Source: Candidatus Hydrogenedentota bacterium (GTDB taxonomy: Bacteria > Hydrogenedentota > Hydrogenedentia > Hydrogenedentales > SLHB01). From it: 14,949 bases of DNA. The stretch is taken from NCBI GenBank assembly GCA_034408725.1, contig JAWXCN010000166.1:1-14949 (forward strand), written 5' to 3'. Shown here piece after piece: positions 1-14,949 of this stretch (positions are counted from its first letter, which is position 1; the number at the start of each line of letters is the position of its first letter). The notes beneath the pieces were generated by a model. The model worked only from the letters and a program-made list of their open reading frames with translations, was not told where the DNA came from and ran no database searches. The position numbers were made by a program, and so were the translations under genes.

Positions 1-22
1 ATCTTCTTTGAATTATATTCAA
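1..22 (-). CDS. Possible 5' end of a divergent gene running off the left edge (MNIIQRR...)
   Basis: Minus-strand SD AGAGGAGG (37-30), a 7-nt spacer, then TTG at 22-20, open to the window edge. Only 7 codons are visible. Confidence 0.35.
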
Positions 23-57
23 TGTAAATCCTCCTCTTTTAACCAAGCTCCTTCCCG

Positions 58-66
58 TGTTAGACT
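58..66 (+). promoter_or_regulatory. Extended -10 element (TG-T-TAGACT), probably driving a leaderless mRNA
   Basis: TGTTAGACT ends 7 nt before ATG 74, and no SD precedes that ATG. Confidence 0.4.
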
Positions 67-73
67 TGCAAGC

Positions 74-1075: not shown

Positions 1076-2043
1076 TGTTGCGGGCCTTGGCAATAGTCTG
1101 GCTTATGTGCGCGGCGTCGATTGCGCGCACCCCGGAAGGTCCGTTGGGGGCGTTGCAGACACCAAACGATGCGCGGCCCGCGCTCTGCGTAGCGGGCAGC
1201 ACGGCTGAGCTTGTTGCGGAACGGCGCGGCACGGTTCATTTGGTGTCGGACGCCGCGCGCCATGCGCTCGCCGCGGAATGGATCGAGCAGCCAAACGGGG
1301 GTGTCGAAGCGCAATGTACGATTCCCAGGGAGGTCCCGCCCGGCGCCTACGCGCTTGAATGGTCGCAGGGCGACGAAATGGATTCCACGCCCCGCGCCGT
1401 GTTCGTGGTTGAGTCCGAACTGGATCGCTACACGTTTGCATGCATCAACGCGAACGCGAAGAATTTTCCCGTACTGGCCGCTTCTTTGGAAACCGCGCAA
1501 CCGCGGTTCGCGGTGGTCTTTGTCGAAGGCGGCGCCGAACAATTCTCCGCTGCGCTTGCTGCGCTTGCGGATTGCCCAATACCAACGTATTTCGTTTGGC
1601 ATTCGGCGCCACCGGACGCGGAGCATTGGGCTGGTCCCGGCACGTATGCGTTTTCCTGCGGACCGGACGAATTCTTCGCGCTCGATTCGGGCCGCGCGGG
1701 TTTGGAAGATTCGATAGGCGCGGCGCCTGGCGTATTCGCGAAACTTCGCAGGGAGCGCAAATCCGCGCGTTGGGCAGTTGCGCTTTTGCATTCCATCGAT
1801 TCCAACATTTCCATGCGAAACGCGATGACGCTTTTCGTGGACGACCCGGTGCATGCCGTCATTTGCGGCGCACCGCCGGCGAACGCGAACGCGCCCACGG
1901 CGATCGAATGGGCGGGGTGGTTTGAACCGGTCCCGGTGTATTCGCCGGAGTCCGATGGCGTCCGGGTATTTTCCGCGTCACTGAAAGACGTTTCGCCTTT
2001 CGTGCCGAAGCCTATTCCACGGGCGGGCATTGCGCCGCGGTAA
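1075..2043 (+). CDS. Exported hypothetical protein; C-terminal region resembles a degenerate calcineurin-like metallophosphoesterase fold (322 aa)
   Basis: TAATG stop/start overlap with the upstream gene, signal-peptide-like MLRALAIVWLMCAAS, and segments IPTYFV, YAFSCGPDEFFALDS, WAVALLH and VHAVICG in phosphoesterase order. Confidence 0.65.
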   Translation: MLRALAIVWLMCAASIARTPEGPLGALQTPNDARPALCVAGSTAELVAERRGTVHLVSDAARHALAAEWIEQPNGGVEAQCTIPREVPPGAYALEWSQGDEMDSTPRAVFVVESELDRYTFACINANAKNFPVLAASLETAQPRFAVVFVEGGAEQFSAALAALADCPIPTYFVWHSAPPDAEHWAGPGTYAFSCGPDEFFALDSGRAGLEDSIGAAPGVFAKLRRERKSARWAVALLHSIDSNISMRNAMTLFVDDPVHAVICGAPPANANAPTAIEWAGWFEPVPVYSPESDGVRVFSASLKDVSPFVPKPIPRAGIAPR

Positions 2044-2057
2044 TCGCGTGCTATACT
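2030..2057 (+). promoter_or_regulatory. Putative sigma70 promoter of the histidine kinase gene
   Basis: TTGCGC (2030-2035), 16 nt, then TATACT (2052-2057) with the TG extension at 2049-2050. Confidence 0.45.
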
Positions 2058-2138
2058 TCGCTGTCCTTATGAGAGGGGGCGCCGCTACCGCTCTGCTTGC
2101 CGGGGAAACGTAAGGGAACCGGGTAACTGTAACGCGGA

Positions 2139-4295
2139 ATGAACAACGACCAATCATCAGCGCCATCGACGGCGTCATCAGCATTGTTGCGGCAAGTGGA
2201 CCACTTGCACACAACCTTGGCGCGTCTTGAAGAAAGTTCGGGGGCGTTGCCCCCGACGGCCGCGGCCGATTTACTGCACCAGGCGTTGGCCGTTTGCCGC
2301 CAGCTCGAACAGGGTATTCGAGGCTCCGCGGACGAACTGGATGCACAACAACTAAAGCTCGCCGACGCGGAAAAACGCGCACAGCTTGCGGACGAGCGGT
2401 TCCATCTCGCGTATGAGGACTGTCCGTTTTCGATGGCCATCGCGAATGTTTCCGAAGGACGTTTCCGGGACGTCAACAAGATGTTTCTCTTCCGCTTGGG
2501 GTATGTGCGTGAGGAGGTCGTGGGGAAAACATCCACCGAACTTGCAATTTTTCCGGATTCACAAGGCCGGCAATGGCTTGTTGACGCGCTCCAGCGCGAC
2601 GGGCGCGCGGAAGGCATTGAACTCATGGCGCGCGGCAAGGACGGCGAATTCCGGTTGGGCCGCATCTATGCGCGCATCGTGTCGTACAACGGCGAGCAAT
2701 GCATCCTGTCGCTGACACAGAGCCTCGACGAGATTCGCGCCGCCGAGTATGAAGCCATACGCTTGCGCCAGTTTTACGAGCAATTATTGGGAGACCTGCC
2801 GGCACAAATAGCGGTCTTTGACGCCGATGGCCGTTATCTCTACATCTCGCCGAGCAGTGTGTTTGATCCCGACCTCCGCGCCTGGCTGATCAACCGCACC
2901 GACTTTGACTACTGCGAGCGGCGCGGCCGTGATCGTTCGATCGCGGAACGCCGGCAGGAATGGCTTCGGTCTGCCGTGTCCAAACGCGAGATTGTCAGTC
3001 AGGAAGAACGGTTCGACTCGCAGGCGGGCGAGCCGCGCCACTTCATCAGGACGTACAAACCTATTGTCGACCGGAACGGCGTGGTGTCACATGTCATCGC
3101 GTACGGACACGACATTACGGACTTCAAACAACTTGAGGAACAGTTACGGCACGCGCAGAAGATGGAGGCGGTTGGCCGGCTCGCGGGCGGCGTGGCGCAC
3201 GACTTCAACAACCTGCTTACCGCGATGATGGGAATCGCCGATTTCATTTTGCCGCAGGTAGCCGGTAACCCTGTCCTCGAATCGGGCATTGCGGAAATTC
3301 AACACGCCGCGGAACGGGCGGCGGCGCTCACGCGCCAATTGCTTGCCTTCAGCCGGCGCGCGCCCGTGCGAAACGTTGCGGTGGACCCGAGCGGCGTGAT
3401 CGATGCCCTGGCCACGATGCTGCGGCGCATCATCGGTGAAAAGGTTTCCCTTACGCTTGCGCTGGACCACGATGTGCCCTGCATCATGGGTGATCCCGGA
3501 CGTCTGGAACAGATCATCATGAACCTTGTCGTGAACGCGCGCGATGCGATGCCCGAAGGCGGCGCGCTGACGATTGAAACCGCGCGCGTCCAAGTCCCGG
3601 TCGATGATGAGGTAAACCAGCCCATGCCGCTGGCCGGGGAGTACGCGCGCATCGCGGTGCGGGATACGGGAGTTGGTATCGATCTTGAAACCAAGCAGCA
3701 CATTTTCGAGCCGTTCTTTACCACCAAGGCAGAAGACAAGGGCACCGGCTTGGGGCTCAGCACGGTGTATGCAATCGTCGAACGCTGGGGTGGGCGTGTG
3801 CAGGTTGAAAGCGAACCGGGTAGCGGCACGGCATTCTTCATCTATCTGCCGTGCGTGGACGAGCACGTCGAGAGCGCGGCGGCAATACCAAAATCTTCGA
3901 CCGGAACCGCGGGGTCGGAAACGGTGCTCGTGGTGGAAGATGAAGACGCGGTGCGCGACGTGGTTTGCCGCATTCTCGGGCGCTGTGGGTACACGGTGCT
4001 TGAGGCCGCGAATGGCGAAGATGCCCTATCCATGGCGGAACACTATACAGGCCCGATCGATATGCTCGTTTCGGACATGGTGATGCCGGGTATGTCAGGC
4101 CGGCAACTTGCCGAACGGCTGCTCGAGCACCGTCCATCCATCGCGATGTTGTTCATGTCTGGGCATTGTGAAGACATGGACGCCGAATTTGTGGCGCAAC
4201 TTCAACCACCGGCGTTTATTCAAAAACCATTTGCATCGACCGAGCTTGCTGTAAAGGTCCGGGAGCTATTGGGACAGTGCCGGGTACCGCAGTAG
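2139..4295 (+). CDS. Cytoplasmic hybrid sensor histidine kinase (coiled coil-PAS-PAS-HisKA-HATPase_c-REC; CckA-like architecture)
   Basis: H-box LAGGVAHDFNNLL, N-box IMNLVVNARDAM, G1 DTGVG, F-box IFEPFFTTK, G2 GTGLGLS. Receiver motifs VLVVEDE, SDMVMPGMSG, FMSG and KPF. Two PAS/PAC-like segments and no TM helix. Confidence 0.95.
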   Translation: MNNDQSSAPSTASSALLRQVDHLHTTLARLEESSGALPPTAAADLLHQALAVCRQLEQGIRGSADELDAQQLKLADAEKRAQLADERFHLAYEDCPFSMAIANVSEGRFRDVNKMFLFRLGYVREEVVGKTSTELAIFPDSQGRQWLVDALQRDGRAEGIELMARGKDGEFRLGRIYARIVSYNGEQCILSLTQSLDEIRAAEYEAIRLRQFYEQLLGDLPAQIAVFDADGRYLYISPSSVFDPDLRAWLINRTDFDYCERRGRDRSIAERRQEWLRSAVSKREIVSQEERFDSQAGEPRHFIRTYKPIVDRNGVVSHVIAYGHDITDFKQLEEQLRHAQKMEAVGRLAGGVAHDFNNLLTAMMGIADFILPQVAGNPVLESGIAEIQHAAERAAALTRQLLAFSRRAPVRNVAVDPSGVIDALATMLRRIIGEKVSLTLALDHDVPCIMGDPGRLEQIIMNLVVNARDAMPEGGALTIETARVQVPVDDEVNQPMPLAGEYARIAVRDTGVGIDLETKQHIFEPFFTTKAEDKGTGLGLSTVYAIVERWGGRVQVESEPGSGTAFFIYLPCVDEHVESAAAIPKSSTGTAGSETVLVVEDEDAVRDVVCRILGRCGYTVLEAANGEDALSMAEHYTGPIDMLVSDMVMPGMSGRQLAERLLEHRPSIAMLFMSGHCEDMDAEFVAQLQPPAFIQKPFASTELAVKVRELLGQCRVPQ

Positions 4296-4299
4296 CTCC

Positions 4300-5301
4300 T
4301 TACTTCCGCGCTGCCTTTGGCGCGCCGGCGCTAATCTGTTCCAGTAACGGAATCAGCGTTGCGTCGATTTGAGCGTCCGTGCCGCCCACTTCCGCCTTGA
4401 AAAGAAACCATTCCTCCACGTGTTCAACAGTGCCGCCCGCCGAACCGATCTTTGAAAGAGGACCCAAGGTCTCTATCTCAAGCATGTCGGCATTGGTAAA
4501 CGTTTCCGTGCTGCAACCGAAGTCCACGTATTCGCCATCTTCGTCGTGGGTGAATCGCTTGATAAAAACGTCTCCCTTCAACGTGTATGCGGCCCAGCCC
4601 CGGGCATTCTTGAAGCCGGCTTTTTGCGACGTGGCCGAAGCGGGGTCCTGCCGCAACTGAATGTATTTGGTTCCCCAGGTCCAACGCGGGTCTTGCATGT
4701 CGGTATAGTGCCAAAGGACCAGCGGCCTTGCGGGCAGCAGGTAGTCATCATGCGCGATGTACGGTTCCTGCGGATAAATGGCGCGGCCTTCTTTCGCCAT
4801 TACCGTCAACGCCCACGGCGCGAGTTTTACGTCCCATTCGTTATGGTTAGTCAGGCGATGCAAAATGGTGATCTTGCTCGATCCGGAGTCAAGCGCGATT
4901 TCCATTTGCTTTTGAATCCCCGTGGATTTTTCGGTGTCCTGCGTCACGCGCAACGTGACGCCATCCCATTCATGTTTCACCGGGGAATTATCGGGCGCAT
5001 AGGTGCGTGGTTTCGCTTCGGGCGCATGCCATAAGCGATGGCCGCCGTAGATGCGCCAGTCTTCGCCGCCGGTTTTTCCCAACATGTCGGGATACTCGTT
5101 CAGCAGGTTCTGGCCACCAATGAAACCGTAGCGCATGATGCGTGGACCGACGTCGGTGATAACTATGGCTTCAACCGTGCCGTTGGACAGTACGATACAG
5201 TTTGGCCAGCCGCCGTAAGCTTTTTTCTCCATCGTCACTTCGGAGTGCGCCGGCGACACGAGCGCCAGGCCGATAAACGCAAATAAAAAAATTCGCCGCA
5301 T
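4300..5301 (-). CDS. Exported conserved hypothetical protein, probably a galactose-mutarotase/aldose-epimerase-like beta-sandwich
   Basis: SD GGAGG, signal peptide MRRIFLFAFIGLALVSPAHS, and motifs LSNG-VE-DVGPRI, YGGHRLWHAPE, EIETLGP and HVEEW. The fold assignment is from memory. Confidence 0.7.
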   Translation of the reverse strand: MRRIFLFAFIGLALVSPAHSEVTMEKKAYGGWPNCIVLSNGTVEAIVITDVGPRIMRYGFIGGQNLLNEYPDMLGKTGGEDWRIYGGHRLWHAPEAKPRTYAPDNSPVKHEWDGVTLRVTQDTEKSTGIQKQMEIALDSGSSKITILHRLTNHNEWDVKLAPWALTVMAKEGRAIYPQEPYIAHDDYLLPARPLVLWHYTDMQDPRWTWGTKYIQLRQDPASATSQKAGFKNARGWAAYTLKGDVFIKRFTHDEDGEYVDFGCSTETFTNADMLEIETLGPLSKIGSAGGTVEHVEEWFLFKAEVGGTDAQIDATLIPLLEQISAGAPKAARK

Positions 5302-5414: not shown

Positions 5415-5663
5415 TTTGCCCAGGAAATAGAAAGCGGAAGCTACCCGTTGCCGCACTCCAAGGCCCGCGCGGATTTTAGACGTCGTTTGGCCGCGCGAAG
5501 CGCCTTGGACTGCGGTGTGTCAGCGCCGCTTTCACTTCGGGGTACTCGAAACGCTCCATAATTTGAAGGCTTCAGGACCACGAATCTAAACCAGCGCAGT
5601 CGCGAATCGCGAACAATTTTGCCCAGGAAATGGAAAGCGGCAACACCTGCCGAACTCAAAGGC
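5415..5663. repeat. Cluster of three REP-like units (GAAAGCGG-N-CCGcAcTCcAAGGC): 5430-5464 (+), 5502-5533 (-), 5633-5663 (+)
   Basis: Units 1 and 2 are inverted relative to each other. Units 1 and 3 share TTTGCCCAGGAAAT[A/G]GAAAGCGG (5415-5437 vs 5618-5640, 22/23) and 14/16 nt at their 3' ends. Units 1 and 2 have an internal GCGG...CCGC stem, which is degenerate in unit 3. Confidence 0.75.
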
Positions 5664-5682: not shown

Positions 5683-6693
5683 TTACGAATTTAAAGGAAA
5701 CGGCATCAGGACTTTTTCGTGTTCGACGGGCTTGGCCGGTACAAACGGGTCCGCAAAGATTTCCTTCAGACTCGCGCCCATTAGGAAGGTCTGCTTTTGT
5801 AATTTCTTCACGAGATCGGGGTGGCCGCAGAGATATACACGGAATCCTTTTAATGCGAGCAATATCTCCGGCACGTGAGCATCGATGGGGCCGAGGTGCA
5901 TGCCAGCATCGACATCGCCTTCGAGGACACAAGGGTGATAATGAAACTGAGGCGCGCGCTCGGCCAATGCGCGCAAACGATCCACGAGATACAACCCCGC
6001 CTTTCGAACGCTTCCGTGAAACAGGTGAATTGGGCCGTCATGCCCCTGCCGCAGCGCATCGGTGAGAATCCCCAGCAGCGGGGCCAATCCCGTGCCTGTG
6101 CCCACGAGCAGCAATGGTTGTGTTGTGTTTCCGGGCACATAAAAACAATTGCCGTGCGGCCCCAACAACTCGACGGAGTCGCCTGGTTTTGCGCGCTCAT
6201 GCACCCAACCGCTCATAGCGCCTCCCGGCACGCGCGCCACGTGCAACGCGAGGGTGTCGTCTACACCTGGAATACTGGCCAGTGAATAGCTGCGGACAAT
6301 TCCATCGGGATTGACGAGGTTCACAAATTGGCCTGGCCGGTAGTCGAACGTATCCGCGCAACGCAACCGCACCTCGCTGACTGAGTCGTTCAACAACTGT
6401 AGTTTCGCAATTGTGGCCACGCACCGGAAACCCGCGCCTGGTCGGCCGATCACCAGCCGCTCCTCCGGTATGCACATGCACGCAAGGAAATAACGCTGAA
6501 CGCGCAAAGTATCGCGCAGTCCCGCCTGCGCTTTGGCCGGTGGTGAACCCTCGAGCGCCTGCATCATGCAGGTCTGACAAATACCGCTGCGGCAGGAGCT
6601 GCGCACGTCTTTGCCGGCCGCTTCCAGCGCATCGAGAACAGTGGCCCCCAGCGGGAGGTGCAGGATCTCCCCCTCGAAAACTATTTCGCCCAT
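5683..6693 (-). CDS. [2Fe-2S]/FAD/NAD(P)H ferredoxin reductase-type protein, putative globin reductase
   Basis: Plant-type Fe-S motif CRSGICQTC...LAC, FAD motifs RSYSLAS and GGAMS, NAD motifs GTGTGLAP and YLCG. Starts 2 nt after the globin stop. Confidence 0.9.
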   Translation of the reverse strand: MGEIVFEGEILHLPLGATVLDALEAAGKDVRSSCRSGICQTCMMQALEGSPPAKAQAGLRDTLRVQRYFLACMCIPEERLVIGRPGAGFRCVATIAKLQLLNDSVSEVRLRCADTFDYRPGQFVNLVNPDGIVRSYSLASIPGVDDTLALHVARVPGGAMSGWVHERAKPGDSVELLGPHGNCFYVPGNTTQPLLLVGTGTGLAPLLGILTDALRQGHDGPIHLFHGSVRKAGLYLVDRLRALAERAPQFHYHPCVLEGDVDAGMHLGPIDAHVPEILLALKGFRVYLCGHPDLVKKLQKQTFLMGASLKEIFADPFVPAKPVEHEKVLMPFPLNS

Positions 6694-6695
6694 TG

Positions 6696-7085
6696 CTACA
6701 CCGATGCGGGAGCTGGCGCGCGGTTTAAGACGTCGTTTCGGGTAGTCTCCACAAGGTCAAGCACCTGCTGAATCAGATGGGCCGGCACCGATAATTCGTT
6801 CAGCGCCTTAACAAGATTTTCTTTTACCGCATCGAAATGGGTATCGTTCAAGCCACGTTCCACCATTTTGGCATGACCGGTACGCAAATCAGCGCCGGTA
6901 TAGGCGTGTGGTCCGCCGAAGGCCATCGTCATGAATGCATGCTGCTTCGCGGCCTGTTTTTCCATATCGATGTCTTCAAACCAGAAATTGATGCGGTCGT
7001 CCTGCAATACGTACCGGTAGAAAATATCGACCGCCTGCTCTACGGCAGCCTCCCCACCGAGCGCTTCAAAAATAGATTTCGACAT
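6696..7085 (-). CDS. glbN: Group I truncated (2/2) hemoglobin, trHbN/GlbN type (129 aa)
   Basis: LGG motif, FY (B9/B10), CD1 Phe, KQAAKQ (E7/E11 Gln), GGPxxYTG, proximal His in RTGH, and HFDAV. ATG 7085 is preceded by SD GGAGAG. Confidence 0.93.
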   Translation of the reverse strand: MSKSIFEALGGEAAVEQAVDIFYRYVLQDDRINFWFEDIDMEKQAAKQHAFMTMAFGGPHAYTGADLRTGHAKMVERGLNDTHFDAVKENLVKALNELSVPAHLIQQVLDLVETTRNDVLNRAPAPASV

Positions 7086-7123
7086 AAAGACCCTCTCCAA
7101 TGTAAATAGCCCCGCGATCCGAG

Positions 7124-7146
7124 AACATATATCTAACATATAGCTT
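7124..7146. promoter_or_regulatory. Candidate NsrR operator (11-1-11 imperfect inverted repeat AACATATATCT-A-ACATATAGCTT)
   Basis: 8/11 arm symmetry. The minus strand AAGCTATATGTTAGATATATGTT resembles the AAGATG(C/T)ATTT-N-AAAT(G/A)CATCTT NsrR-type site. It overlaps a candidate glbN promoter (TTGAAT 7158-7153, 17 nt, TAGATA 7135-7130). Confidence 0.65.
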
Positions 7147-7170
7147 AATGGAATTCAAGCGGCGCCTTCG

Positions 7171-7179
7171 TGCTACACT
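7171..7179 (+). promoter_or_regulatory. Extended -10 (TG-C-TACACT) of nsrR, probably leaderless
   Basis: Ends 6 nt before ATG 7186, with no convincing SD. Confidence 0.45.
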
Positions 7180-7185
7180 TGGATC

Positions 7186-7647
7186 ATGCAACTGACCCTT
7201 TATACCGATTACGCGTTGCGCGTACTCCTCTACCTTGCGTTGCATCCTGAAGGCGCAACTATCGCGGAGATTGCCTCGCGCTATCGGGTGTCGCGAAATC
7301 ATCTCGTGAAAATTGCGCACAATTTGGGCAAGCTGGGGTTGTTGGAAACCAAACGCGGACGCAACGGCGGCTTGCGCCTGACGCGATCGCCCGGCCAACT
7401 GAACCTGGGCGAAATCGTGCGGCTGGTGGAACCGAATTTTCATATCGTGGAATGCTTCGATAGGAAACGGAACGCCTGCTCGATTGCGCCGGCATGCGGC
7501 ATGCGCGGCGCGTTTTACGAGGCACAACAAGCGTTTCTCCAAACACTGGATCGGTATACGCTCGCGGATTTTACTCCGAACGGCGACGAACTTCGGAAGC
7601 TGCTGCGCAGACGCGCGGCGCCACCGTCACTAGCCCGGGAAGCATAG
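7186..7647 (+). CDS. nsrR: Rrf2-family NO-sensing transcriptional repressor (NsrR-type)
   Basis: MQLTLYTDYALRVLLYLA, SRNHLVK and RGRNGG, three conserved Cys (IVECF, NACSI, APAC) and AFLQTLDRYTLAD. Divergent from a globin. Confidence 0.88.
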   Translation: MQLTLYTDYALRVLLYLALHPEGATIAEIASRYRVSRNHLVKIAHNLGKLGLLETKRGRNGGLRLTRSPGQLNLGEIVRLVEPNFHIVECFDRKRNACSIAPACGMRGAFYEAQQAFLQTLDRYTLADFTPNGDELRKLLRRRAAPPSLAREA

Positions 7648-7740
7648 CGCTTCGACGCCGAAGTCATTCAAGCCAATCCCCGGCTATGGCGTTTATTTGA
7701 TGTGAGAAGGAGTTGCGATAGACATTGCGGAGGTAGGCGC

Positions 7741-8883
7741 ATGAAACCTGAAGTTATTAAGGCCACTGCCTGGGCGGTCCTATTCACCGGTTTGCTCGCG
7801 ATATCTATCGTGATCGGTTCCCGCAATCTTTCCCGGTTTGACGCGCCGCTCGTCGCGTACACATTCGCAACCCTTTTCGCGATGTTTGGTATCACCTACC
7901 GGTACTCGATGTGGCTTCAACGGCCACCGACGGCGATGTTTTGGAAGCGCGGCTGGCAAACGTTTTTCTCGCGCGGAAGGATAGCGCGGAATACGGGTAT
8001 CTGGTTTGTGCGCGTAGGCGGCGAGTTCGCGCTAAACAATTTCATCTGGAAACGGGCGCGAGTGCGATGGCTGGCCCACTTCCTCATCATGTGGGGTAGC
8101 ATTATTGCCGCCGCCATCACGTTTCCGCTCGTGTTCGGCTGGATGAGTTTCGAATCGCTACCCGGCAACATCGAATGGTACCGGGTCTATATCTTCGGCT
8201 TTCCAACCATAGCGATGCCGCACGAATCTTTCCTCGCCTTTTTTATTTTCCACGGCCTGGTATGGGCCTCGTTGATGGTCATACCCGGCGTCATGATCGC
8301 CATGCGGCGCCGAATGCGAGATGAAGGCGCCGCGGCGCTCCAGACGTTTTCGGAAGATTTCCTGCCGCTGATTCTGCTCTTCGCAGTGAGTGTATCGGGA
8401 TTGTTGCTAACGGTCAGCTATACGTGGCTGCAAGGTTATGGCTATGAATTTCTGGCGTTGCTGCACGCGGTGACCGTCATCTTCACATTGTTGTGGTTGC
8501 CGTTTGGAAAGTTTTTTCATATCTTCCAAAGGCCCGCGCAGCTTGGCGTTGAATTCTACAAGGATGTCGCCGCCGCGGGCGAGGCGGCAACCTGCGGCCG
8601 TTGCGGCCACCCATTCGCATCACTCCTGCACGTGAACGATCTCATCAAGGTTGAGCAGGCGCTGGGTTATCGTTATGAGATTCGCGGAGAGCCCAGGGTG
8701 GGGCATTACCAAAGGATTTGTCCCCCTTGCCGCCGTGCGATGCTAGCGATCGCGCAGGGATCACTCATGCGGGGCTCCGCATACGAACAGACCGGAATGA
8801 CGTTGCCAATGCCCGCGTATGTGAATACCGGTTTGGGCGAAGGGCCGCTTGGCGACGAAGACGCGCGCAATTTTCACCCGTAA
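7741..8883 (+). CDS. Polytopic membrane protein, NarI/HmcE-like cytochrome b anchor with C-terminal CxxC...CxxC domain (380 aa)
   Basis: SD GGAGG at 7729-7733 and several TM helices. Membrane His residues in RWLAH, IFHG and LLH-x17-H (LPFGKFFH). C-terminal CGRC and CPPC. Confidence 0.75.
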
Positions 8884-8898
8884 CAGGAGTATCGAGTC

Positions 8899-11160
8899 TT
8901 GGCTAACCCAGGCACTACTATCGAAGCGATAGCCGGAGAGTTTGGCCCGCATCTTTCCCAATCCACTGGCATGCGGCTCGATTCGACGCTGGTCCCCGAC
9001 AAGGTCGTCAATACGCATTGCTGTTTTTGCGGCCAGCAATGCGGCATCAAACTTTTGGTCAAAGATGAGGTCGTCGTCGGGTTCGAGCCTTGGTACGATT
9101 TCCCGTTCAACGAAGGGAAGCTTTGCCCTAAAGGCGTGAAGCGTTACCTTCAAGGCGCCCACCCTGACCGGTTATTGCATGCATATCAGCGTGACACCAA
9201 CTCGCCAAATGGTTTCCGTGCCCTGGGCTACGACGAGGCCATTGCGCGGGTAGCTTCGGAGATTCAGCGCATCCAGGATGCGCATGGCCCGCATGCCATG
9301 GCCTGCCTTAGTGGGGCGAGCCTTACGACTGAGAAATGTTATTTGATGGGAAAGTTCGCGCGCGTCTGTCTGAAATCGTCGAATATCGATTACAACGGCC
9401 GGTTGTGCATGGTAAGCGCCGGTGCCGCCAATAAAAAGGCTTTCGGCGTAGACCGCGCCGCGAATTCCTGGGCGGACATTCTCAAGACGCAACTGGTTTG
9501 GATTAGCGGCGCGAACATCGCCGAGTGCGCGCCCATCACAACCGACTACGTGTGGCAAGCGCGGGAGAACGGCGCAAAAGTCATTGTCGTTGACCCGCGC
9601 ATTACAGCCATAGCGCGCACCTGTGACCTGTTTCTACCGATCAAGCCCGGGCGCGATGTCGCGTTGTTCAACGGGATTCTTCATTTGATGATCGAGAACA
9701 ATTGGCTGGACCATGATTTTATTGCAAAGCACACCGTAAATTTTGACGAAGTCGCCGCGGGTGTTAAGGACTGCTCACCGTCGCGCACGGCTGAAATCAC
9801 GGGAATCGCCGAACGTGCAATCCGTACTGCCGCGGAGTGGTGGGGCGAGGCCCAATCAAGTTTCCTGCTGCATGCGCGCGGCATCGAACACCACACCCAC
9901 GGGGTGCAGAATTGCCTCGGCGCCATCAATATCGTCCTCGCGTCCGGGCGCATCGGCCGGGAGTTTTGCGGCTACGCGACCATCACCGGGCAGGCAAACG
10001 GCCAAGGCGGACGCGAGCATGGCCAGAAGTGTGATCAGTTGCCGGGTTGGCGCGACCTTGGAAACCCGGAGCACCGTGCGCATATCGCAAAGATATGGGG
10101 CGTGGCCGAGCAGGACCTGCCGCCTCCCGGCGTGGATGCGTACGAAATCTTCCGCAAGATCGATCGGAATGAAATCAAGGGCCTGCTTTCCATCTGCTTC
10201 AACCCACTGGTATCGCTACCGGACAATAACTTCGTGCGGCGCATGTTGCAAAAGCTCGAGTTTTATGTCGCCATCGATTTCTTCATGAACGAAACCGCGC
10301 GATACGCTGACATTGTGTTGCCGGGTTCGCTGCACGAAGAGGATGAAGGCACGGTAACGACAGCCGAGGGCCGCGTCATTAAAATCAACAAGGCAGTCGA
10401 ATGTCCGGGAGACGCGCGCGAGGATTGGCGAATCATCCAGGACATCGCGAAGTCGCTAAATCGGCCGCACGGATTCACTTTCGATTCCCCGCGCGAAATT
10501 CTCGAAGAATTGCGCGTTGCGTCGAGGGGCGGCGTTGCGGATTACTCTGGCATCACGTACGAAAGGCTGGAGAAGGAACATGGGGTTTTCTGGCCGTGCT
10601 ACTCGGAAGAGCATCCTGGCACGCCACGCCTATTCGAACCTGGGACCTGGAACCCGGTGGCAAACGGCAATGGGCCGTTTTACTTTCCCGACGGTAAGGC
10701 GCGGTTTAACGCGATTACCTATCAGCCGCCCGCCGAAGTCACTGACGCCGAGTATCCCTACATTCTGACGACCGGTCGTGTGATCAGTCATTTTCTTTCC
10801 GGTACACAGACCCGGCGCATTGGACCCTTGGTGGATCAATGCCCGGAGCCGTACATCGAAGTGCATCCGGAGCTTGCGGGAAAGCTGGGACTGGCAACGG
10901 GCGATTGGGCAACGGCCGAATCACGGCGAGGAACCTGCACCTTGCCAGTCCGTGTGGTGACGACCATTCGCCCCGATACGATTTTCATTCCCTATCACTG
11001 GCCTGGGCGAAAGAGCGTGAACCAACTCACGATTTCCGCGCAAGACGCCATTTCTAAAATCCCGGAGTACAAGGTCTGCGCGGTGAGGCTAAAGAAAGTG
11101 CCCGCGCCCTCTGCGGAAGAGTTGGCGCGAATCGAGCCCGCTGCGCGGGTGGAGGTATAA
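8899..11160 (+). CDS. Mo/W-bisPGD oxidoreductase catalytic subunit of the Nas/Nap/Fdh clade, nitrate-reductase-like (753 aa)
   Basis: TTG start with SD AGGAG. [4Fe-4S] motif [10 protein letters not shown]...LCPKG, active-site [26 protein letters not shown] and LTTGR. No Tat motif. Confidence 0.9.
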
Positions 11161-11164
11161 GCAC

Positions 11165-11824
11165 ATGCCTGTTTCGGAGTTGCTGGAATTTTTCGTCGAT
11201 CCCGCGAGATGCATCGGGTGCAACGCCTGCGTGCAGGCGTGTTCCGAATGCGATACGCACAAGGGCCATTCGATGATCCAGTTGGACATGATCGACCAGG
11301 CGCATTCAACACAGACCGTGCCGGTGATTTGCATGCATTGCGACTCGCCAACCTGCGCGGAGGTGTGCCCCGCGGACGCCATCAAGAAAACGGCAGATGG
11401 CGTGGTCCAGAGTGCGCGCAAACCACGCTGCATCGCTTGCAACAATTGTGTGCTTGCGTGCCCGTTTGGCGTTCCCAAGATGAATACCGAAACGCATCTG
11501 ATGATGAAGTGCGACATGTGTTACGACCGCAGTTCCGTGGGCAAGAAACCGATGTGCGCGTCGGTATGTCCAAGTCAGGCGCTTTTCTTTGGCACGCGAG
11601 AGGAGATCGCGCGATTACGGCCCCGGTCACGTGCGGTCAATGCCTTTCAATTCGGCAATCAAACCATCACTACCAAAGTGAACATGATGGTGCCCAACTA
11701 TGCGGCGGCGGATTGCATTGATGTCACCGGGTCGATGCACGGCACGGTCATTGGAAATCAGATTGACGCGAGCGTGCTCTATCAGGGGATTGAAACAGGA
11801 GAATCTCACCATGCGTCCACATGA
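11165..11824 (+). CDS. Four-cluster [4Fe-4S] electron-transfer subunit (DmsB/NrfC-like)
   Basis: Four Cys groups: [35 protein letters not shown] and KCDMC...PMCASVC. SD GGAGG. Confidence 0.93.
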
Positions 11825-12359
11825 TGAAGAAAACGTATCGGCAGCGCCGGACGGCGCCCCGCCCGGGGAACAGCCACACTGGCGCCGCCAGTTCCCAATT
11901 GATGTGGCGGAGGACGAGTATCGCTCCCGGCGCGATTTTACGAAACTGCTCGGGCTGACAAGCCTGGCCTTCGTGTCGGGTCAGGGTTTCATTATCGCCC
12001 AGAGCATTACAAAGAAATCCGAAGGGCCTCTTCCCGAAATCGATGTGGCCGCGCTGGACGAACTCGAGGTCGGTATGGCAAAGGTGTTCCAATATCCTCA
12101 CGAAGGAAACGCTTGTGTGCTGGTGCGGATTTCAGAGGACAACTTTGTCGCCTATGGCCAGAAGTGCACACACCTGTCCTGCCCCGTGATACCCAAGCCG
12201 CGAGATGGAAAATTCTATTGTCCGTGTCACAATGGCAGCTTCGACCTGCATACGGGACGTCCATTGGCCGGCCCGCCGCGCCGCGCCTTGCCGAAAGTCA
12301 CTCTGAAAATGGCCAATGGCCGAATCATTGCAACCGGATTGGAGCACGGAGTCGTATGA
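11811..12359 (+). CDS. Rieske [2Fe-2S] protein with Tat-type signal/anchor (182 aa)
   Basis: SD AGGAG at 11797-11801 and 14-nt overlap with the upstream gene. SRRDFTK followed by a hydrophobic stretch, and boxes CTHLSC and CPCH. Confidence 0.92.
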
Positions 12360-12583
12360 AAGGGTCAACATTTGCGCGCAGCCAGCGCGGGGCCATTGTG
12401 CTGGGCATACTCTGCATCGTAGGAACACTTGTCGTGTTTCAGTTGTGGCTTTTGACCGCGACGATGGAAGCGTACCTCGGGGGCAATGATGACATTGTTA
12501 TTCCTGCCGCGCTTGCGAGTGTTGGTTGCTTTTTGCTGAACTTCGGAATTCTCCATTTCTATATGCGGCGCCTGGATCGTTAG
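12356..12583 (+). CDS. Small two-TM membrane protein (75 aa; QLWLLT motif, recalled as DUF6755-like)
   Basis: ATGA overlap with the Rieske stop and two hydrophobic helices. The true start is internal to the ORF-track ORF 12113..12583. Confidence 0.8.
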   Translation: MKGSTFARSQRGAIVLGILCIVGTLVVFQLWLLTATMEAYLGGNDDIVIPAALASVGCFLLNFGILHFYMRRLDR

Positions 12584-12590
12584 CACGGCC

Positions 12591-13646
12591 ATGGAGCCAG
12601 ACAGCACGCCGGCGCCGAAATTATTTTCGCCGCTCTCAACTCTTTTTCCCGGTTACTTTTCGCTCGTTATGGCCACCGGAATCGTCTCAATCGCAGCGCA
12701 TTTCATGGAATACACTTGGATTTCACGAGCACTGTTTTGTTTTAACGTGATAGCATACTGCGTCCTGTGGGCACTGACCCTTGCGCGGGTGCTCTTTTTC
12801 ACACAGCAGATACTCGCGGATATTATGAACAACGCCCGGAGCGTTCTTTTTCTTACCATGGTCGCGGGGACGATGGTGTTGGGCAGCCAGTTTGCCCTGA
12901 TGTCGCCTTACATGGGCGTTGCAAAGGCGCTGTGGTGGCTCGGAATTCTGCTCTGGGTTGTGCTCATCTATACGTTTTTCACCGTGAATACCGTTCACGA
13001 GCCAAAGCCGAAATTTGAAGACGCAATCAATGGCGCGTGGCTGCTCGCCACGGTGTCGACGGAATCTATTTGCGTGCTCGGCACGCTGGTGGCGCCATCG
13101 ATGCGCAATGCGGAGGCGGTATTCTTCGTGTCGTTGTCGGCGTATTTGCTGGGCGCAATGTTTTACATCGTCCTGATAGCGCTGATTGTGTATCGATGGT
13201 TTTTTTTCAGCCTTCCTCCAGACAAATTGACGCCGCCGTATTGGATCAACATGGGCGCGCTCGCCATCACCACGCTTGCCGGTTCGCGGTTATTGTTGTC
13301 CACGACACATTGGCCGTTCCTAGAGACCATCCGCGGATTTATCACCGGGTTTACCCTGTTTTTCTGGGTCACCGGAACATGGTGGATTCCGCTTCTCATC
13401 TTCGTGGGCATCTGGCGGCATGTGGCGCAGCGGGCGCCACTGAAATATGACCCCCAATATTGGTCGCTGGTGTTCCCTATCGGAATGTACACCGTCTCAA
13501 CCTTCATATTCGCGCAGGCAACAGGATTGCAAGTGCTCGCGTCAATACCGGTTGCCGCTTTTTATGTTGCGCTTGCGGCGTGGGCGCTGACGTTTGCCGG
13601 AATGATGCACGCGCTCGCGCGCCAGGCGCTGCACCGCGAAGCGTAG
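12591..13646 (+). CDS. SLAC1/TDT family (tellurite-resistance/dicarboxylate) anion channel
   Basis: About 10 TM helices with PGYFSLVMATGIVS, NGAWLL, PPYWINMGALAITTLAG and YWSLVFPIGMY (gate WxxxFP). Confidence 0.9.
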   Translation: MEPDSTPAPKLFSPLSTLFPGYFSLVMATGIVSIAAHFMEYTWISRALFCFNVIAYCVLWALTLARVLFFTQQILADIMNNARSVLFLTMVAGTMVLGSQFALMSPYMGVAKALWWLGILLWVVLIYTFFTVNTVHEPKPKFEDAINGAWLLATVSTESICVLGTLVAPSMRNAEAVFFVSLSAYLLGAMFYIVLIALIVYRWFFFSLPPDKLTPPYWINMGALAITTLAGSRLLLSTTHWPFLETIRGFITGFTLFFWVTGTWWIPLLIFVGIWRHVAQRAPLKYDPQYWSLVFPIGMYTVSTFIFAQATGLQVLASIPVAAFYVALAAWALTFAGMMHALARQALHREA

Positions 13647-13655
13647 CGGCGTTGT

Positions 13656-13970
13656 TCAGGGCCGGATCGTCACTAAATAGAATTTGCTGTTGGTGTTGGC
13701 GACGAGGCTGTGCGCAACGCGCGGTGCCATCCGAAGCCAAGTCCCCGCAGCGGCTGTGTACTGCTTGTCTTCGACGGTAAGTTCGATTTCGCCCTCAAGG
13801 AAATGCAGCATCGCTTCCATTGACGTGGTGTGCTCCGACATCTCCTGCCCCGCCGTCATCGCAAACAACGTGGCGTGCATCCTTTCGCCTTTGAAAATGA
13901 TGTGGCTCAGAATGCCTTCTTTTGGATATTCAATAGCATTTAACACGTCTAAAACGATTGTATGTTGCAT
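13656..13970 (-). CDS. Single-domain cupin protein (104 aa)
   Basis: Start MQHTIV with SD GGAGA. Cupin motifs GQEMSEH...HFLEG and AGTWLRMAPRVAH. The upstream extension in the ORF track overlaps the next gene and is spurious. Confidence 0.85.
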   Translation of the reverse strand: MQHTIVLDVLNAIEYPKEGILSHIIFKGERMHATLFAMTAGQEMSEHTTSMEAMLHFLEGEIELTVEDKQYTAAAGTWLRMAPRVAHSLVANTNSKFYLVTIRP

Positions 13971-14016
13971 GGTGTTTCTCCGGTGTGTGCGAAAGTGAAA
14001 GACCTTCTCGCTCGCT

Positions 14017-14025
14017 ACTGTACCA
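14017..14025 (-). promoter_or_regulatory. Possible extended -10 (TG-G-TACAGT) for the cupin gene
   Basis: Motif lies in the 64-nt gap upstream of the cupin start. Confidence 0.3.
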
Positions 14026-14034
14026 AACGCCGCT

Positions 14035-14949
14035 TTACTGTTGCGCATAGTGCGTGTACCAGTCGCTCGTGAAGATGTTCGCGGGATCGGACGCGCGCTT
14101 GTGTTCCAGAAACTTGCTGAAACGAGGATGCGCCGCGCGAACCTGCTCCTGCGTTGCGAATATGTGATACGTGAGATAATAGCTGCCGCGGTATTCGATT
14201 GAGCGATCGATGAGCCTGCGGAACGAATCTGCTGCGCCCATAAGGCCCGCGGGCGTATGGTCAACGTGTAGATTGAAAATGACGCACGCCCAGGGTTCGC
14301 GCGCCCATGCGAGAAATGATTCGGAATCTCGCTCGATGAGGCGGACTGTGCCGTAGATGACATTCACGCCGTGCTTGCGAAAATCTCTCGCGCACGTGCG
14401 CATGAATGCGGCAAGCGAAGCGCGGGGTATGTAGGCCTCCGTAATCATTTCCGTGCCGCGCACGTGTGCGCCAGTCTTTTCATCAAGCCATTCGTGGTAG
14501 TCATCAAGATAGGTGCTCATCTGCATGGTGTCTGACCAGTAGATTTGACCTGACGTCGCGCGGTAATGGCCGGCATATGCCTCATAGGCCTTTGCCTTGT
14601 CGACATGGGCGAGATGAATCAGGTCGCGCCATTGCGCCGGTGAAAGTTCGTGTTGATCGTTGGGAACCGGAGTCGAGGGCGAAACCTCGCGGTAGCATGC
14701 CATGACGCCTTTATGCAGGAAACCGGGAGATTGCGCGTCCGTCATATATTGAAAATCTCCATAGTCGAACCCGTCGCGAATGCGGGCATGAAACTTGTCG
14801 ATGGCATCATCAATCGTTGAGATCTCCACAATGCGTTGCATCTTCCGCCTCCGGACGAGTCGCAGCGACACGCTGTACACAATTCCGAAGAGTCCATAGC
14901 CTCCCAAGATGAGCGAGAACAAATCGGCATTCTCGCCACGGCTGCATCG
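14035..14949 (-). CDS. FAD-linked oxidase (VAO/PCMH-type, arabinono-lactone oxidase/DprE1-like), 5'-truncated by the window edge
   Basis: The frame is open to 14949 and reads RCSRGENADLFSLILGGYGLFG. The C-terminus has GSYYLTYH and KRASDPANIFTS. Confidence 0.85.
   Translation of the reverse strand, partial: RCSRGENADLFSLILGGYGLFGIVYSVSLRLVRRRKMQRIVEISTIDDAIDKFHARIRDGFDYGDFQYMTDAQSPGFLHKGVMACYREVSPSTPVPNDQHELSPAQWRDLIHLAHVDKAKAYEAYAGHYRATSGQIYWSDTMQMSTYLDDYHEWLDEKTGAHVRGTEMITEAYIPRASLAAFMRTCARDFRKHGVNVIYGTVRLIERDSESFLAWAREPWACVIFNLHVDHTPAGLMGAADSFRRLIDRSIEYRGSYYLTYHIFATQEQVRAAHPRFSKFLEHKRASDPANIFTSDWYTHYAQQ

Follow-up and report, generated by a model that had tools for sequence, protein, structure and literature searches.

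Why does a gene for an NsrR-like repressor lie between a truncated haemoglobin gene pair and a molybdoenzyme operon in the 14,949-nt stretch of Candidatus Hydrogenedentota DNA analysed here (the window)? A preliminary description saw in this arrangement a possible NO circuit and offered two alternatives for it: nitrate made by the globin feeds the reductase and the channel moves the anion, or the globin removes NO produced as a by-product by the Mo enzyme. We find it more convincing, with a probability of about 60%, that NO defence is parked here beside a nitrite-producing enzyme, as two self-contained, separately inherited modules standing back to back.

Layout of the locus

The window is the entire contig C166 of a metagenome-assembled genome with 92% completeness. 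The layout observed earlier was confirmed: the minus strand carries a reductase gene and glbN, and the plus strand carries nsrR followed by an operon of six genes for a molybdoenzyme. The distance of 93 nt between nsrR and the operon on the same strand is exact (stop at 7647, ATG at 7741), and a canonical terminator was not found there. A 5050-base contig of run X1 spans 6478–11527 with no difference to the window, and the metagenome contig L205 is identical to it over the nsrR-cassette junction. Thus, the junction is not a binning artefact; both contigs possibly come from the window's own source sample and are therefore not independent support for it. Judged by their sequences, the genes fall into two separate conserved modules, that is nsrR with the divergent glbN-reductase pair (5683–7647) and the Mo cassette (7741–13646).

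A probable NO-responsive globin module

The globin gene (6696–7085, minus strand; ORF 6696–7139) has its conserved start, MSKS, at 7085, preceded by GGAGAGG. Its product matches Pfam Bac_globin and belongs to group I (GlbN/trHbN type), as first described, since its matches to cyanoglobin (4e-30), Chlamydomonas THB1 (2e-25, the fifth-best solved structure) and Mycobacterium tuberculosis HbN (1e-16) are far ahead of that to HbO (about 1e-3). All of the 14 sequences compared share Y23, Q44, K47, Q48 and H71, and the protein is probably an NO dioxygenase. The partner gene (5683–6693, minus strand) encodes the FNR-type reductase that had been proposed, a [2Fe-2S] ferredoxin-FAD-NAD(P)H protein with Pfam Fer2, FAD_binding_6 and NAD_binding_1 domains. 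Three of its motifs are kept in 17 homologues, namely C34/C39/C42/C72, R134-S135-Y136-S137 (Y136 in at least 90%) and G198-T199-G200-T201-G202 (G198 and G200 in at least 90%). Directly after its stop, a consensus scan detected a terminator-like hairpin (5638–5652, minus strand; 6 pairs, then CTTTCCATTT), which likely ends the glbN-reductase transcript.

The reductase adjoins glbN in 69 of 80 glbN loci (nsrR does so in 33 of 80) and is the probable electron donor of the globin. Structure prediction of the complex weakly supports this pairing, with a score of 0.39 against 0.00 for the best control, agreement between runs on at least 67% of contacts and a partner pLDDT of at least 80; in calibration, 7 of 80 solved complexes passed at scores of 0.60 or less, and both of the mismatched pairs that passed (2 of 110) lay in that same range.

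The regulator (7186–7647, plus strand) is a Pfam Rrf2 protein whose best PDB match is Streptomyces coelicolor NsrR (4e-18), with D8 and three cysteines aligned. It was rightly called NsrR-like, at an NCBIfam NsrR score (132.7 bits; RirA, 114.7) below the curated cut-off of 182. A matrix built from 17 other loci, the window being left out, located a single predicted NsrR-type operator at 7124–7146, 38–39 nt from both divergent start codons. It scores 17.9 bits, is the only site in the window above 6.5 bits and ranks fifth among 5.16 million genome positions; the four sites that outscore it lie in or at ORFs without any NO-related family. The consensus for this operator, to which the window did not contribute, is similar to the NsrR box with bench support in Acinetobacter baumannii. 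The regulon seems to consist of one divergent promoter pair. As a unit, nsrR, glbN and the reductase gene are all present in the 8 fetched relatives, and nsrR lies beside glbN in all 10 relatives that have a glbN orthologue. More widely, glbN divergently adjoins nsrR in 17 of 80 NsrR-homologue loci, 13 of which also have the reductase.

We propose that the NsrR-like [4Fe-4S] repressor, bound at 7124–7146, would keep both divergent promoters off until NO displaces it. Once expressed, the truncated haemoglobin would use O2 to convert NO into nitrate, its haem being re-reduced by the reductase. Elsewhere in the genome, nothing scored above cut-off for NirK, NrfA, Hcp, YtfE, Hmp or NarK, and the sole NIR_SIR protein adjoins a PAPS reductase. 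The one Cytochrom_D1 (NirS) match barely clears its cut-off (30.5 against 25.5 bits) and extends over only 82 of the 368 profile positions within a frame of 1095 aa; we do not take it for a cd1 nitrite reductase. Among these searched families, the globin module would be the sole NO defence of this 92% complete genome.

A nitrate-reductase-like cassette

The six cassette genes (plus strand, 7741–8883 to 12591–13646) are separated by 15, 4, −14, −4 and 7 nt. The first (7741–8883) encodes a membrane subunit that conservation and fold identify as a dihaem cytochrome b resembling NarI and ending in a domain with four cysteines: H113, H171, H242, H260, C285, C288, C327 and C330 are invariant in 33 sequences, and the best folds for its model (pLDDT 84) are EtfD (Z 12.0) and Escherichia coli NarI (Z 10.8), the next scoring 8.0. 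The second (8899–11160) encodes a Mo-bisPGD catalytic subunit of Nas/Nap type, without a signal peptide. Its description as nitrate-reductase-like is upheld by the NCBIfam NasC model, which reaches 779.9 bits (cut-off 1100) against 570.9 for Fdh-alpha, and by an RLCMxSA stretch that aligns with Desulfovibrio desulfuricans NapA, where the aligned formate dehydrogenases have C-H; we take Met instead of His after the Mo-ligand Cys to be NapA-like. The NasC, NsrR and NarK model scores are all under their curated cut-offs.

A four-cluster [4Fe-4S] electron-transfer subunit (11165–11824; Pfam Fer4_11, DmsB/FdhB-like) follows, then a Rieske [2Fe-2S] protein (11811–12359; conserved part from 11808) that matches Pfam Rieske and the arsenite-oxidase small subunit and bc1 Rieske models and carries a Tat-type SRRDFTK twin-arginine motif with a hydrophobic anchor. 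The last two genes encode a 75-aa two-helix membrane protein (DUF6755, 12356–12583; PF20540, 91.1 bits) and a TehA/SLAC1-family anion channel (12591–13646; PF03595, 161 bits). Judged by its gene position, the latter is a probable nitrate/nitrite carrier, as had been suggested, occupying the slot that a NarK-type MFS protein holds elsewhere.

Of at least 558 genome matches and at least 533 metagenome matches, we inspected the best 80 in each set; many of the metagenome matches lie on short contigs. Across the best 80 genome loci, from many phyla, the genes are present in 78 (membrane subunit), 80 (Mo), 76 (FeS), 75 (Rieske) and 72 (DUF6755) cases. The same slot holds TehA in 44 and a NarK-type MFS in 23 (one of them upstream), never both, and one or the other lies directly downstream in 57 of the 62 loci having enough downstream DNA. 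By these criteria, the module appears to be a widespread, cross-phylum and as yet uncharacterised membrane nitrate-reductase-like cassette. Its neighbours, among the best matches, include RIC/YtfE (14/80 genome and 12/79 metagenome cassettes; 26/159), NnrS (4/80 and 4/79) and Crp/Fnr (11/80 and 6/79); hemerythrin genes lie beside some cassettes, and a NarJ-type chaperone occurs too.

The cassette would be a mobile six-gene unit encoding a cytoplasm-facing nitrate reductase bound to the membrane. Quinol would deliver electrons to the NarI-like cytochrome b, from which the FeS subunit would relay them to the Mo site, and the TehA/SLAC1 protein would carry nitrate in and/or nitrite out. A periplasm-facing Rieske domain is without a place in such a simple NarGHI-like scheme and counts against this reading.

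Possible regulatory coupling of the two modules

Could the modules nevertheless form one circuit, in which NO frees NsrR, transcription from the nsrR promoter reads over the spacer, the Mo enzyme turns nitrate from the globin into nitrite and TehA moves the anions? Bacteria would then have their own version of the algal haemoglobin/nitrate-reductase NO cycle. Such read-through is possible. The 93-nt spacer (7648–7740, plus strand) offers a good ribosome-binding site (GGAGG before the ATG at 7741), a consensus scan found no terminator-like or sigma-70-like site in it, and the operator is positioned to gate nsrR itself. However, the fold of 7625–7745 contains a long imperfect hairpin followed by UUUAUUU (z −0.78), which may still terminate transcription. 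Moreover, the ORFs after nsrR in relatives vary by locus, several having the nearest ORF on the opposite strand. Direct action of NsrR on the operon is not indicated, since no NsrR box was found at 7637–7741 (−0.4 bits), nor in the 400 nt preceding each of 73 other cassettes, where the best site reaches 11.9 bits.

Two other loci appear to speak for coupling. In L218 an NsrR gene with 51% identity again adjoins a cassette, but the two converge, so that no common transcript is possible; in L338 glbN, reductase and TehA genes run in a single direction. Algal fusions and pairings of nitrate reductase with truncated haemoglobins (2/2HbN, THB1) also provide precedents. On the other side, no nitrite reductase among the families searched was found in the genome to use the nitrite, and the nitrate flux from NO would presumably be tiny. 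NO dioxygenation depends on O2, but nitrate is mostly respired where oxygen is scarce. Taken together, we consider the circuit unlikely.

Rarity of the pairing and its meaning

The earlier reading is supported in part: the component identities stand, with a matching operator, but conserved adjacency, which the preliminary description had itself made a point of refutation, is not supported. First, the nsrR-cassette adjacency was not found in the 8 fetched relatives, and the relatives G020 and G009 have each of the modules on a contig of its own. Second, among 159 other cassettes (best genome and metagenome matches), glbN adjoins none by tblastn and profile, and a close NsrR adjoins one, the convergent L218. 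Third, the cassette adjoins none of 80 NsrR loci and none of 80 glbN loci. With so few instances of this exact arrangement, the evidence that it is under selection is weak.

This rarity raises the alternative that a patchy, evidently mobile cassette landed beside nsrR without functional or regulatory meaning. A cassette orthologue is present in 4 of 40 relatives, its upstream neighbours differ at nearly every locus, and the genes flanking the window's modules (mutarotase, cupin, FAD-type protein) are not common to relatives. Against this, a single-copy 2-kb module would touch a single-copy 6-kb cassette in a 5.2-Mb genome by chance about once in a thousand genomes (a rough estimate), at least two NsrR-cassette loci are seen, and other nitrosative-stress genes lie beside the cassette far above the expectation for single-copy genes. 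The cassette G+C of 0.55–0.58 matches the genome mean (0.57), so that the cassette is not a recent arrival. Pure chance is accordingly improbable.

It is very unlikely that the cassette acts instead as a formate dehydrogenase or on another oxyanion, which TehA would carry, with an indirect or absent link to NO defence: formate dehydrogenases are its best solved-structure sequence matches (FdhF 3e-131, NapA 9e-99), presumably because no NasC-type structure is among the matches, the TehA name is tied to tellurite and dicarboxylates, Rieske partners are typical of arsenite oxidase and the NasC score is under its cut-off, but the NasC margin over Fdh-alpha, the NapA-like Met, the NarK-type proteins in TehA's stead and the neighbouring NarJ-type, RIC, NnrS and Crp/Fnr genes point to nitrate.

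For two modules placed back to back, we propose that they are neighbours because the reduction of nitrate to nitrite brings nitrosative stress, the globin module standing in for the RIC/YtfE, NnrS or hemerythrin genes seen at the cassettes of other lineages. Between the two alternatives first offered, these genes, together with a genome without a nitrite reductase or another NO-detoxifying gene among those searched, favour the globin removing NO that accompanies the Mo-enzyme chemistry. That globin-derived nitrate feeds the reductase would be possible chemically, with a precedent in algae.

Comparison with known systems

Legionella pneumophila has an NsrR-type regulator and a bicistronic pair of a cyanoglobin-type truncated haemoglobin, glbN, and the ferredoxin reductase lpg2536; this pair was predicted to be the only target of NsrR there, the genome having no hmp, hcp, dnrN or nnrS (Rodionov et al. 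2005, PMC1274295; Gardner 2012, PMC3820574). The window shares this design, and its genome also lacks Hmp, Hcp and YtfE matches among the families searched; it differs in phylum and in the nitrate-reductase-like operon after nsrR, both cases being sequence predictions. Bacillus bataviensis has a 729-aa NasC linked to iron-sulfur protein and Rieske genes, a linkage common to other species and suggested as an alternative assimilatory system (Heylen and Keltjens 2012, PMC3475470). NasC is the best family model for our Mo subunit, below its cut-off; in contrast, the window's genome yielded no nitrite reductase, and its membrane cytochrome b and carrier point to a respiratory or quinol-linked enzyme.

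With E. coli NarGHI and NarK, the cassette shares a predicted membrane dihaem cytochrome b of NarI fold (180 of 224 residues), an FeS subunit holding four clusters, a Mo-bisPGD subunit in the cytoplasm that lacks a signal peptide and an operon-linked nitrate/nitrite carrier. However, with 753 aa its catalytic subunit falls into the small Nas/Nap type, the narG model reaching no more than 56 bits, the Tat-type Rieske protein, DUF6755 and the four-Cys cytochrome b tail are additions, and TehA replaces NarK. This TehA is a strong family match to plant SLAC1, which conducts nitrate and chloride, and to bacterial TehA; a solved structure matching it by sequence at E 0.01 or better was not found. 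The enterobacterial NsrR regulon (hmp, ytfE, hcp) likewise has an NO-released Rrf2 repressor with an inverted-repeat operator, and predicted NsrR regulons include narK-like carriers, whereas the regulon here is seemingly a single divergent promoter pair.

The algal NO cycle is alike in that a group I truncated haemoglobin is tied physically or genetically to nitrate reductase. The raphidophyte enzyme NR2-2/2HbN reportedly has an inserted 2/2HbN domain, and work on Chlamydomonas THB1 and nitrate reductase reportedly describes an NO cycle joining the two; THB1 has Lys at the position aligned with K47 of our globin. The eukaryotic nitrate reductase belongs to the sulfite oxidase family of Mo enzymes and reduces the globin directly, whereas the window pairs a bisPGD-type Mo enzyme with a globin that has its own reductase, the two sets lying on opposite strands or in separate units.

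Gene layout and continuity of the locus

The ORF listing, read with family scans, confirmed the gene coordinates of the preliminary description and its 93-nt spacer (7648-7740) downstream of nsrR. The window comprises all 14,949 bases of contig C166, one of 280 in a MAG that is 92% complete. On the forward strand it opens with three reading frames (2-4295), for a PD40-repeat protein, an unassigned product and a PAS hybrid histidine kinase. The reverse strand then carries genes for a mutarotase (4300-5301), a Fer2-FAD-NAD reductase (5683-6693) and a truncated haemoglobin, glbN (6696-7085). Back on the forward strand are an Rrf2 regulator, nsrR (7186-7647), and six tightly packed genes (7741-13646; hereafter the cassette) encoding, in this order, a possibly NarI-like membrane subunit, a molybdenum (Mo) subunit, an iron-sulfur (FeS) subunit, a Rieske protein, a DUF6755 protein and a TehA/SLAC1 channel. 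After the cassette, a cupin ORF (13656-14363) and a truncated FAD-type ORF lie on the reverse strand. The globin ORF extends to 7139, and every homologue begins at the MSKS of 7085, which has GGAGAGG ahead of it. No Rfam family was found in the window. There was also no sign of a recent transfer of the cassette, the G+C content of which equals the genome mean.

Positions 6478-11527 were matched without difference by a 5050-base contig of sequencing run X1, which bears on DNA continuity only, and metagenome contig L205 is identical over the nsrR/cassette junction; the window's own source may account for both. In four of four runs, a contig follows the window to 7616, 31 nt before the nsrR stop codon, and then continues into unlike sequence (bin 7497-7767). 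Depth is raised in the bin with this break and the diverging continuation is absent from the MAG; the 3' part of nsrR seems to be common to another strain or organism of the same samples, in a different context.

We also made two observations on the flanks. First, the cupin domain of the 235-aa cupin ORF is confined to its last 70 residues; the N-terminal part resembles non-coding read-through, and translation probably begins near MQHTIVLD. Weak cupin homologues (31-37%), some fused to hemerythrin, occur a few kb from cassettes at 9 of 80 genome loci (the best 80 of at least 558) and at one metagenome locus. Second, the PAS hybrid histidine kinase (2139-4295, forward strand) lies 3.4 kb upstream of the cassette, and in a relative of the same family a homologue with 48% identity is found some 2 kb ahead of the cassette (L005:5972, L093:5502). 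This proximity may be meaningless, since the genome holds more than 20 kinase paralogues.

The globin, its reductase and NsrR follow a known design

The globin belongs to group I: among solved structures it matches best cyanobacterial GlbN (4e-30), Chlamydomonas THB1 (2e-25) and M. tuberculosis HbN (1e-16), and group II HbO only at about 1e-3. We aligned it with 13 of 22 references, having dropped three with stops and six for odd length or low identity. G10 G11, Y23, Q44, K47, Q48, G57 G58 and H71 were invariant in the 14 globins, and we take these residues, K47 apart, to be the Gly-Gly hinges, Tyr B10, Gln E7/E11 and the proximal His. The reductase has Fer2, FAD and NAD domains in Pfam. When it was aligned with 16 of 20 references, C34, C39, C42, C72, R134, S135, S137, T199, T201 and G202 were invariant in the 17 sequences, and Y136, G198 and G200 were kept in at least 90% of them; presumably these are the plant-type 2Fe-2S Cys set, the RxYS flavin motif and the GTGxxP nucleotide motif. 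Prediction of a globin-reductase complex gave a score of 0.39 (best control 0.00), with at least 67% of contacts shared by three runs and a partner pLDDT of at least 80. In the calibration, 7 of 80 solved complexes passed at a score of 0.60 or lower, as did both of the two mismatched pairs, out of 110, that passed at all, counts that are rough owing to own alignments and two riding ligands. The modelling thus gives weak support to a complex of the two proteins.

The regulator has an Rrf2 winged-helix domain (Pfam Rrf2, 128.7 bits, cut-off 30). Its best model is NsrR NF008240 at 132.7 bits, under the cut-off of 182, with RirA next at 114.7. The best structure match is S. coelicolor NsrR: D8 and the three cluster Cys align with entry 5N07, and the three Cys positions are Ala in the variant entry 5N08. 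In S. coelicolor NsrR, the [4Fe-4S] cluster is held by Asp8 and the three C-terminal Cys.

For the operator, we built a palindromic matrix from 17 NsrR-homologue loci in which glbN is divergent; the window was not among them. The resulting consensus is similar to the NsrR-like box described upstream of an NsrR-regulated haemoglobin gene in A. baumannii. A putative operator at 7124-7146 scored 17.9 bits (training sites, 8.8 to 25.3) and sits 38-39 nt from the start codon on either side. It is the sole window site above 6.5 bits and ranks fifth among 5.16 million genome positions. The other high-scoring genome sites comprise three within long ORFs and one ahead of a 448-aa ORF. This last one is the top NsrR-like site of the genome (20.8 bits; G000 C59:20107-20129, equivalent to L365:3608-3630) and lies just before the ORF, which has a hydrophobic N-terminus and no Pfam match and is a possible second NsrR target. 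We also noticed that seven NsrR loci of Zetaproteobacteria (L134, L142, L145, L146, L148, L150 and L169) carry two tandem glbN copies. Two operator-like sites were present in the scanned intergenic region at five of these and at four other loci; the window has one glbN and one site.

The arrangement recurs elsewhere. A divergently adjacent glbN was found at 17 of 80 NsrR-homologue loci, several on cut contigs, and 13 of these 17 also had the reductase. At 80 glbN loci, the reductase lay within 1.5 kb in 69 and nsrR in 33. Among 40 relatives, ten have a glbN orthologue, all ten with an nsrR match a few hundred bases off on the same contig, and the three genes occurred together in all eight whose loci were examined. 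Such an nsrR/glbN-reductase design was predicted in Legionella (Rodionov et al. 2005, PMC1274295), a prediction restated in a later review (Gardner 2012, PMC3820574), and a 2024 paper has nsrR and group 1 glbN in Hydrogenedentota genomes. Judged by sequence, the putative NO dioxygenase module is a known design and a further example of the 2005 prediction. Downstream of nsrR, four relatives (L112, L139, L199 and L202) share the same two convergent ORFs, both about 460 aa long; one opens with a GGGVTG dinucleotide-binding motif.

The cassette is a probable, widespread nitrate reductase

The Mo subunit is 70-78% identical across the best 80 of at least 558 genome hits, the hosts of which are Acidobacteriota, Planctomycetota, Chloroflexota, Verrucomicrobiota and other phyla. 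These 80 loci hold the membrane subunit in 78 cases, the FeS subunit in 76, the Rieske protein in 75 and the small membrane protein in 72. Three of the partner proteins matched no named family or only a domain of unknown function, the small membrane protein being DUF6755.

By model scores, NasC was the best of 27 for the Mo subunit (779.9 bits, under the cut-off of 1100), and Fdh-alpha reached 570.9. A NarG-type catalytic subunit was discarded, as the narG model gave 56 bits against a cut-off of 1084. The N-terminal 4Fe-4S domain matches Pfam Molybdop_Fe4S4. Among solved structures, formate dehydrogenases rank first. At the Mo-ligand Cys, however, the subunit reads RLCMVSA, which lines up with RLCMASA in NapA from D. 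desulfuricans, and the formate dehydrogenases in the alignment show C-H at this point; we take Met after this Cys to mark Nap/Nas enzymes and His to mark formate dehydrogenases. NasC-type enzymes are soluble and draw electrons from NAD(P)H, ferredoxin or flavodoxin modules. Here, by contrast, the Mo subunit is accompanied by a putative membrane cytochrome b, by an FeS protein with four clusters and by a Tat-type Rieske protein, which has SRRDFTK followed by a hydrophobic stretch.

In the membrane subunit, aligned with 32 of 73 sequences, four His and four Cys were invariant in all 33. Its model (pLDDT 84) matched M. smegmatis EtfD (Z 12.0, 217 residues, rmsd 3.7) and E. coli NarI (1Q16 chain C; Z 10.8, 180 of 224 residues, rmsd 4.3), and the match ranked after these reached 8.0. 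For helical bundles, however, a Z value under roughly 13 may be non-specific. Foldseek against the PDB returned nothing at E 0.001 or better, and its top rows were receptors.

We found no study of the cassette and no paper on DUF6755, genes that supplementary gene tables may list. The sole literature match was a remark on B. bataviensis, in which nasC occurs in linkage with genes for an iron-sulfur protein and a Rieske protein (Heylen and Keltjens 2012, PMC3475470). Together, these data suggest that the cassette is a probable nitrate reductase, uncharacterised and widespread. Hundreds of bacteria from soil, sediment and reactors carry it, and the best model of its catalytic gene reads "assimilatory nitrate reductase". 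If it is a quinol-linked nitrate reductase, metagenome counts of nitrate-reducing potential are too low. The cassette matters more than the globin module taken alone.

The last cassette gene points to nitrate or nitrite transport

The channel matches PF03595 over its whole length (161 bits, residues 20-338). A TehA/SLAC1 homologue occurred at 46 of the best 80 of at least 558 genome loci, in 44 of them on the same strand and no more than 1 kb away. A further 23 of these 80 had an MFS protein, with the NarK family as best model (212.5 bits, cut-off 311.7), and none had both. One or the other lay directly 3' in 57 of the 62 loci, among the same best 80, that have at least 1.5 kb after the small gene. 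This mutual exclusion in one slot makes a good positional case for nitrate and/or nitrite as the cargo of the TehA-type protein, and it would also imply a cytoplasmic active site. More broadly, exclusivity with NarK-type proteins offers positional evidence for a bacterial nitrate/nitrite channel family. No protein of known structure in the PDB matched the TehA homologue in phmmer at E 0.01 or better, and no NarK scored above its cut-off in the window's own genome (92% complete MAG). At a Burkholderiaceae MAG locus (L338:9001-11503), glbN, an FNR-type reductase and a TehA/SLAC1 gene 42% identical to the window's run in one direction with no nitrate reductase nearby, which hints that the channel may also export globin-made nitrate.

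Direct adjacency of the two modules is rare

If the two modules formed one circuit, as had been proposed, their neighbourhood might be expected to recur, and at the loci inspected it did not. With tblastn and a profile of 14 globins, glbN adjoined none of 159 other cassettes, namely 80 genome loci (the best 80 of at least 558) and 79 non-self metagenome loci (from the best 80 of at least 533). Conversely, cassette genes were absent from the 8-9 kb around all 80 NsrR loci and all 80 glbN loci. An Rrf2 profile gave five matches at the 159 cassette loci, four distant (L010, L035, L058 and L080) and one close. The close one, L218:5293-6911, has a full cassette with TehA and, about 180 nt further on, a convergent NsrR gene (51% identical, 133.5 bits). 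Any glbN beyond it is out of view because the contig end cuts the nsrR gene.

Among the 40 relatives, only four have a cassette orthologue, and in the two with both modules, G020 and G009, each module has a contig of its own. The ORFs after nsrR vary by locus in the relatives, and in several the nearest is on the opposite strand. No empty insertion site was demonstrable, as the eight relatives examined share no other window genes around the module. Direct adjacency of the globin module and the cassette is rare.

Direct control of the cassette by NsrR is not indicated

The best operator-matrix score in 7637-7741, a stretch that includes the spacer, was -0.4 bits, and no NsrR box was found within 400 nt upstream of 73 other cassettes, where the best score was 11.9 bits. 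Direct NsrR control of the cassette is thus not indicated. Matrix hits at +882 of cassettes were set aside, since they fall within conserved coding sequence. FNR-type boxes, scanned with half-sites that we take to be the consensus, were absent from the window and present at 3 of 73 cassette loci, which makes them no general rule.

The preliminary description had also seen no clear terminator after nsrR, and this observation stood: a consensus scan of the spacer returned no canonical terminator and no sigma-70-like promoter. The spacer holds a long imperfect hairpin ending in UUUAUUU. NsrR-gated read-through from the nsrR promoter into the cassette may occur, a minority reading of the sequence.

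NO defence most likely lies beside a nitrite source

Genes of nitrosative stress do gather around cassettes. Among the best 80 of at least 558 genome loci, the iron-sulfur repair protein RIC/YtfE (a representative scored above the TIGR03652 cut-off) stood beside 14, 13 of them upstream and 11 on the same strand, and among the 79 metagenome loci (from the best 80 of at least 533) beside 12. On the same genome and metagenome samples (the best 80 of at least 558 and of at least 533), the counts were 4 of 80 and 4 of 79 for NnrS, 11 and 6 for Crp/Fnr regulators, and 10 and 2 for a 383-aa hemerythrin protein. We estimate that chance alone would bring a single-copy gene to within 10 kb of any one locus in far less than 1% of genomes. 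That cassettes attract such genes fits a nitrite-producing enzyme, and the globin module and the cassette are probably linked in function, more loosely than in a closed circuit.

In the window's own genome (92% complete MAG), NirK, NrfA, Hcp, YtfE and Hmp gave no match above cut-off. A cd1 nitrite reductase was rejected, as the one Cytochrom_D1 (NirS) match, barely above its cut-off (30.5 against 25.5 bits), extends over no more than 82 of the profile's 368 positions and lies in a 1095-aa frame. The sole NIR_SIR protein is probably a sulfite reductase, since it lies beside a PAPS reductase. The genome has one haem-copper oxidase. The organism would then produce nitrite without a recognised enzyme to remove it, the globin being the only recognised NO defence among those searched. 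Such a setting fits the second alternative of the preliminary description, in which the globin clears NO formed as a by-product by the Mo enzyme; that part of its interpretation is favoured, while conserved adjacency and direct NsrR control were not supported. Most likely, the adjacency is a co-location of NO defence with a nitrite source.

The first alternative, in which the globin makes nitrate for the Mo enzyme, would go further than co-location. With the cassette NO-inducible through NsrR-gated read-through and the SLAC1-type channel moving the anions, the globin would close a bacterial NO-to-nitrate-to-nitrite loop, which on sequence we consider unlikely. Only at a few loci, the window among them, could the cassette be gated directly by an NO sensor, and this makes the window a simple test system. 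Were the loop real, it would parallel in prokaryotes the algal haemoglobin/nitrate-reductase cycle, with unrelated components and with independent assembly in a few lineages, among them those of the window and of L218.
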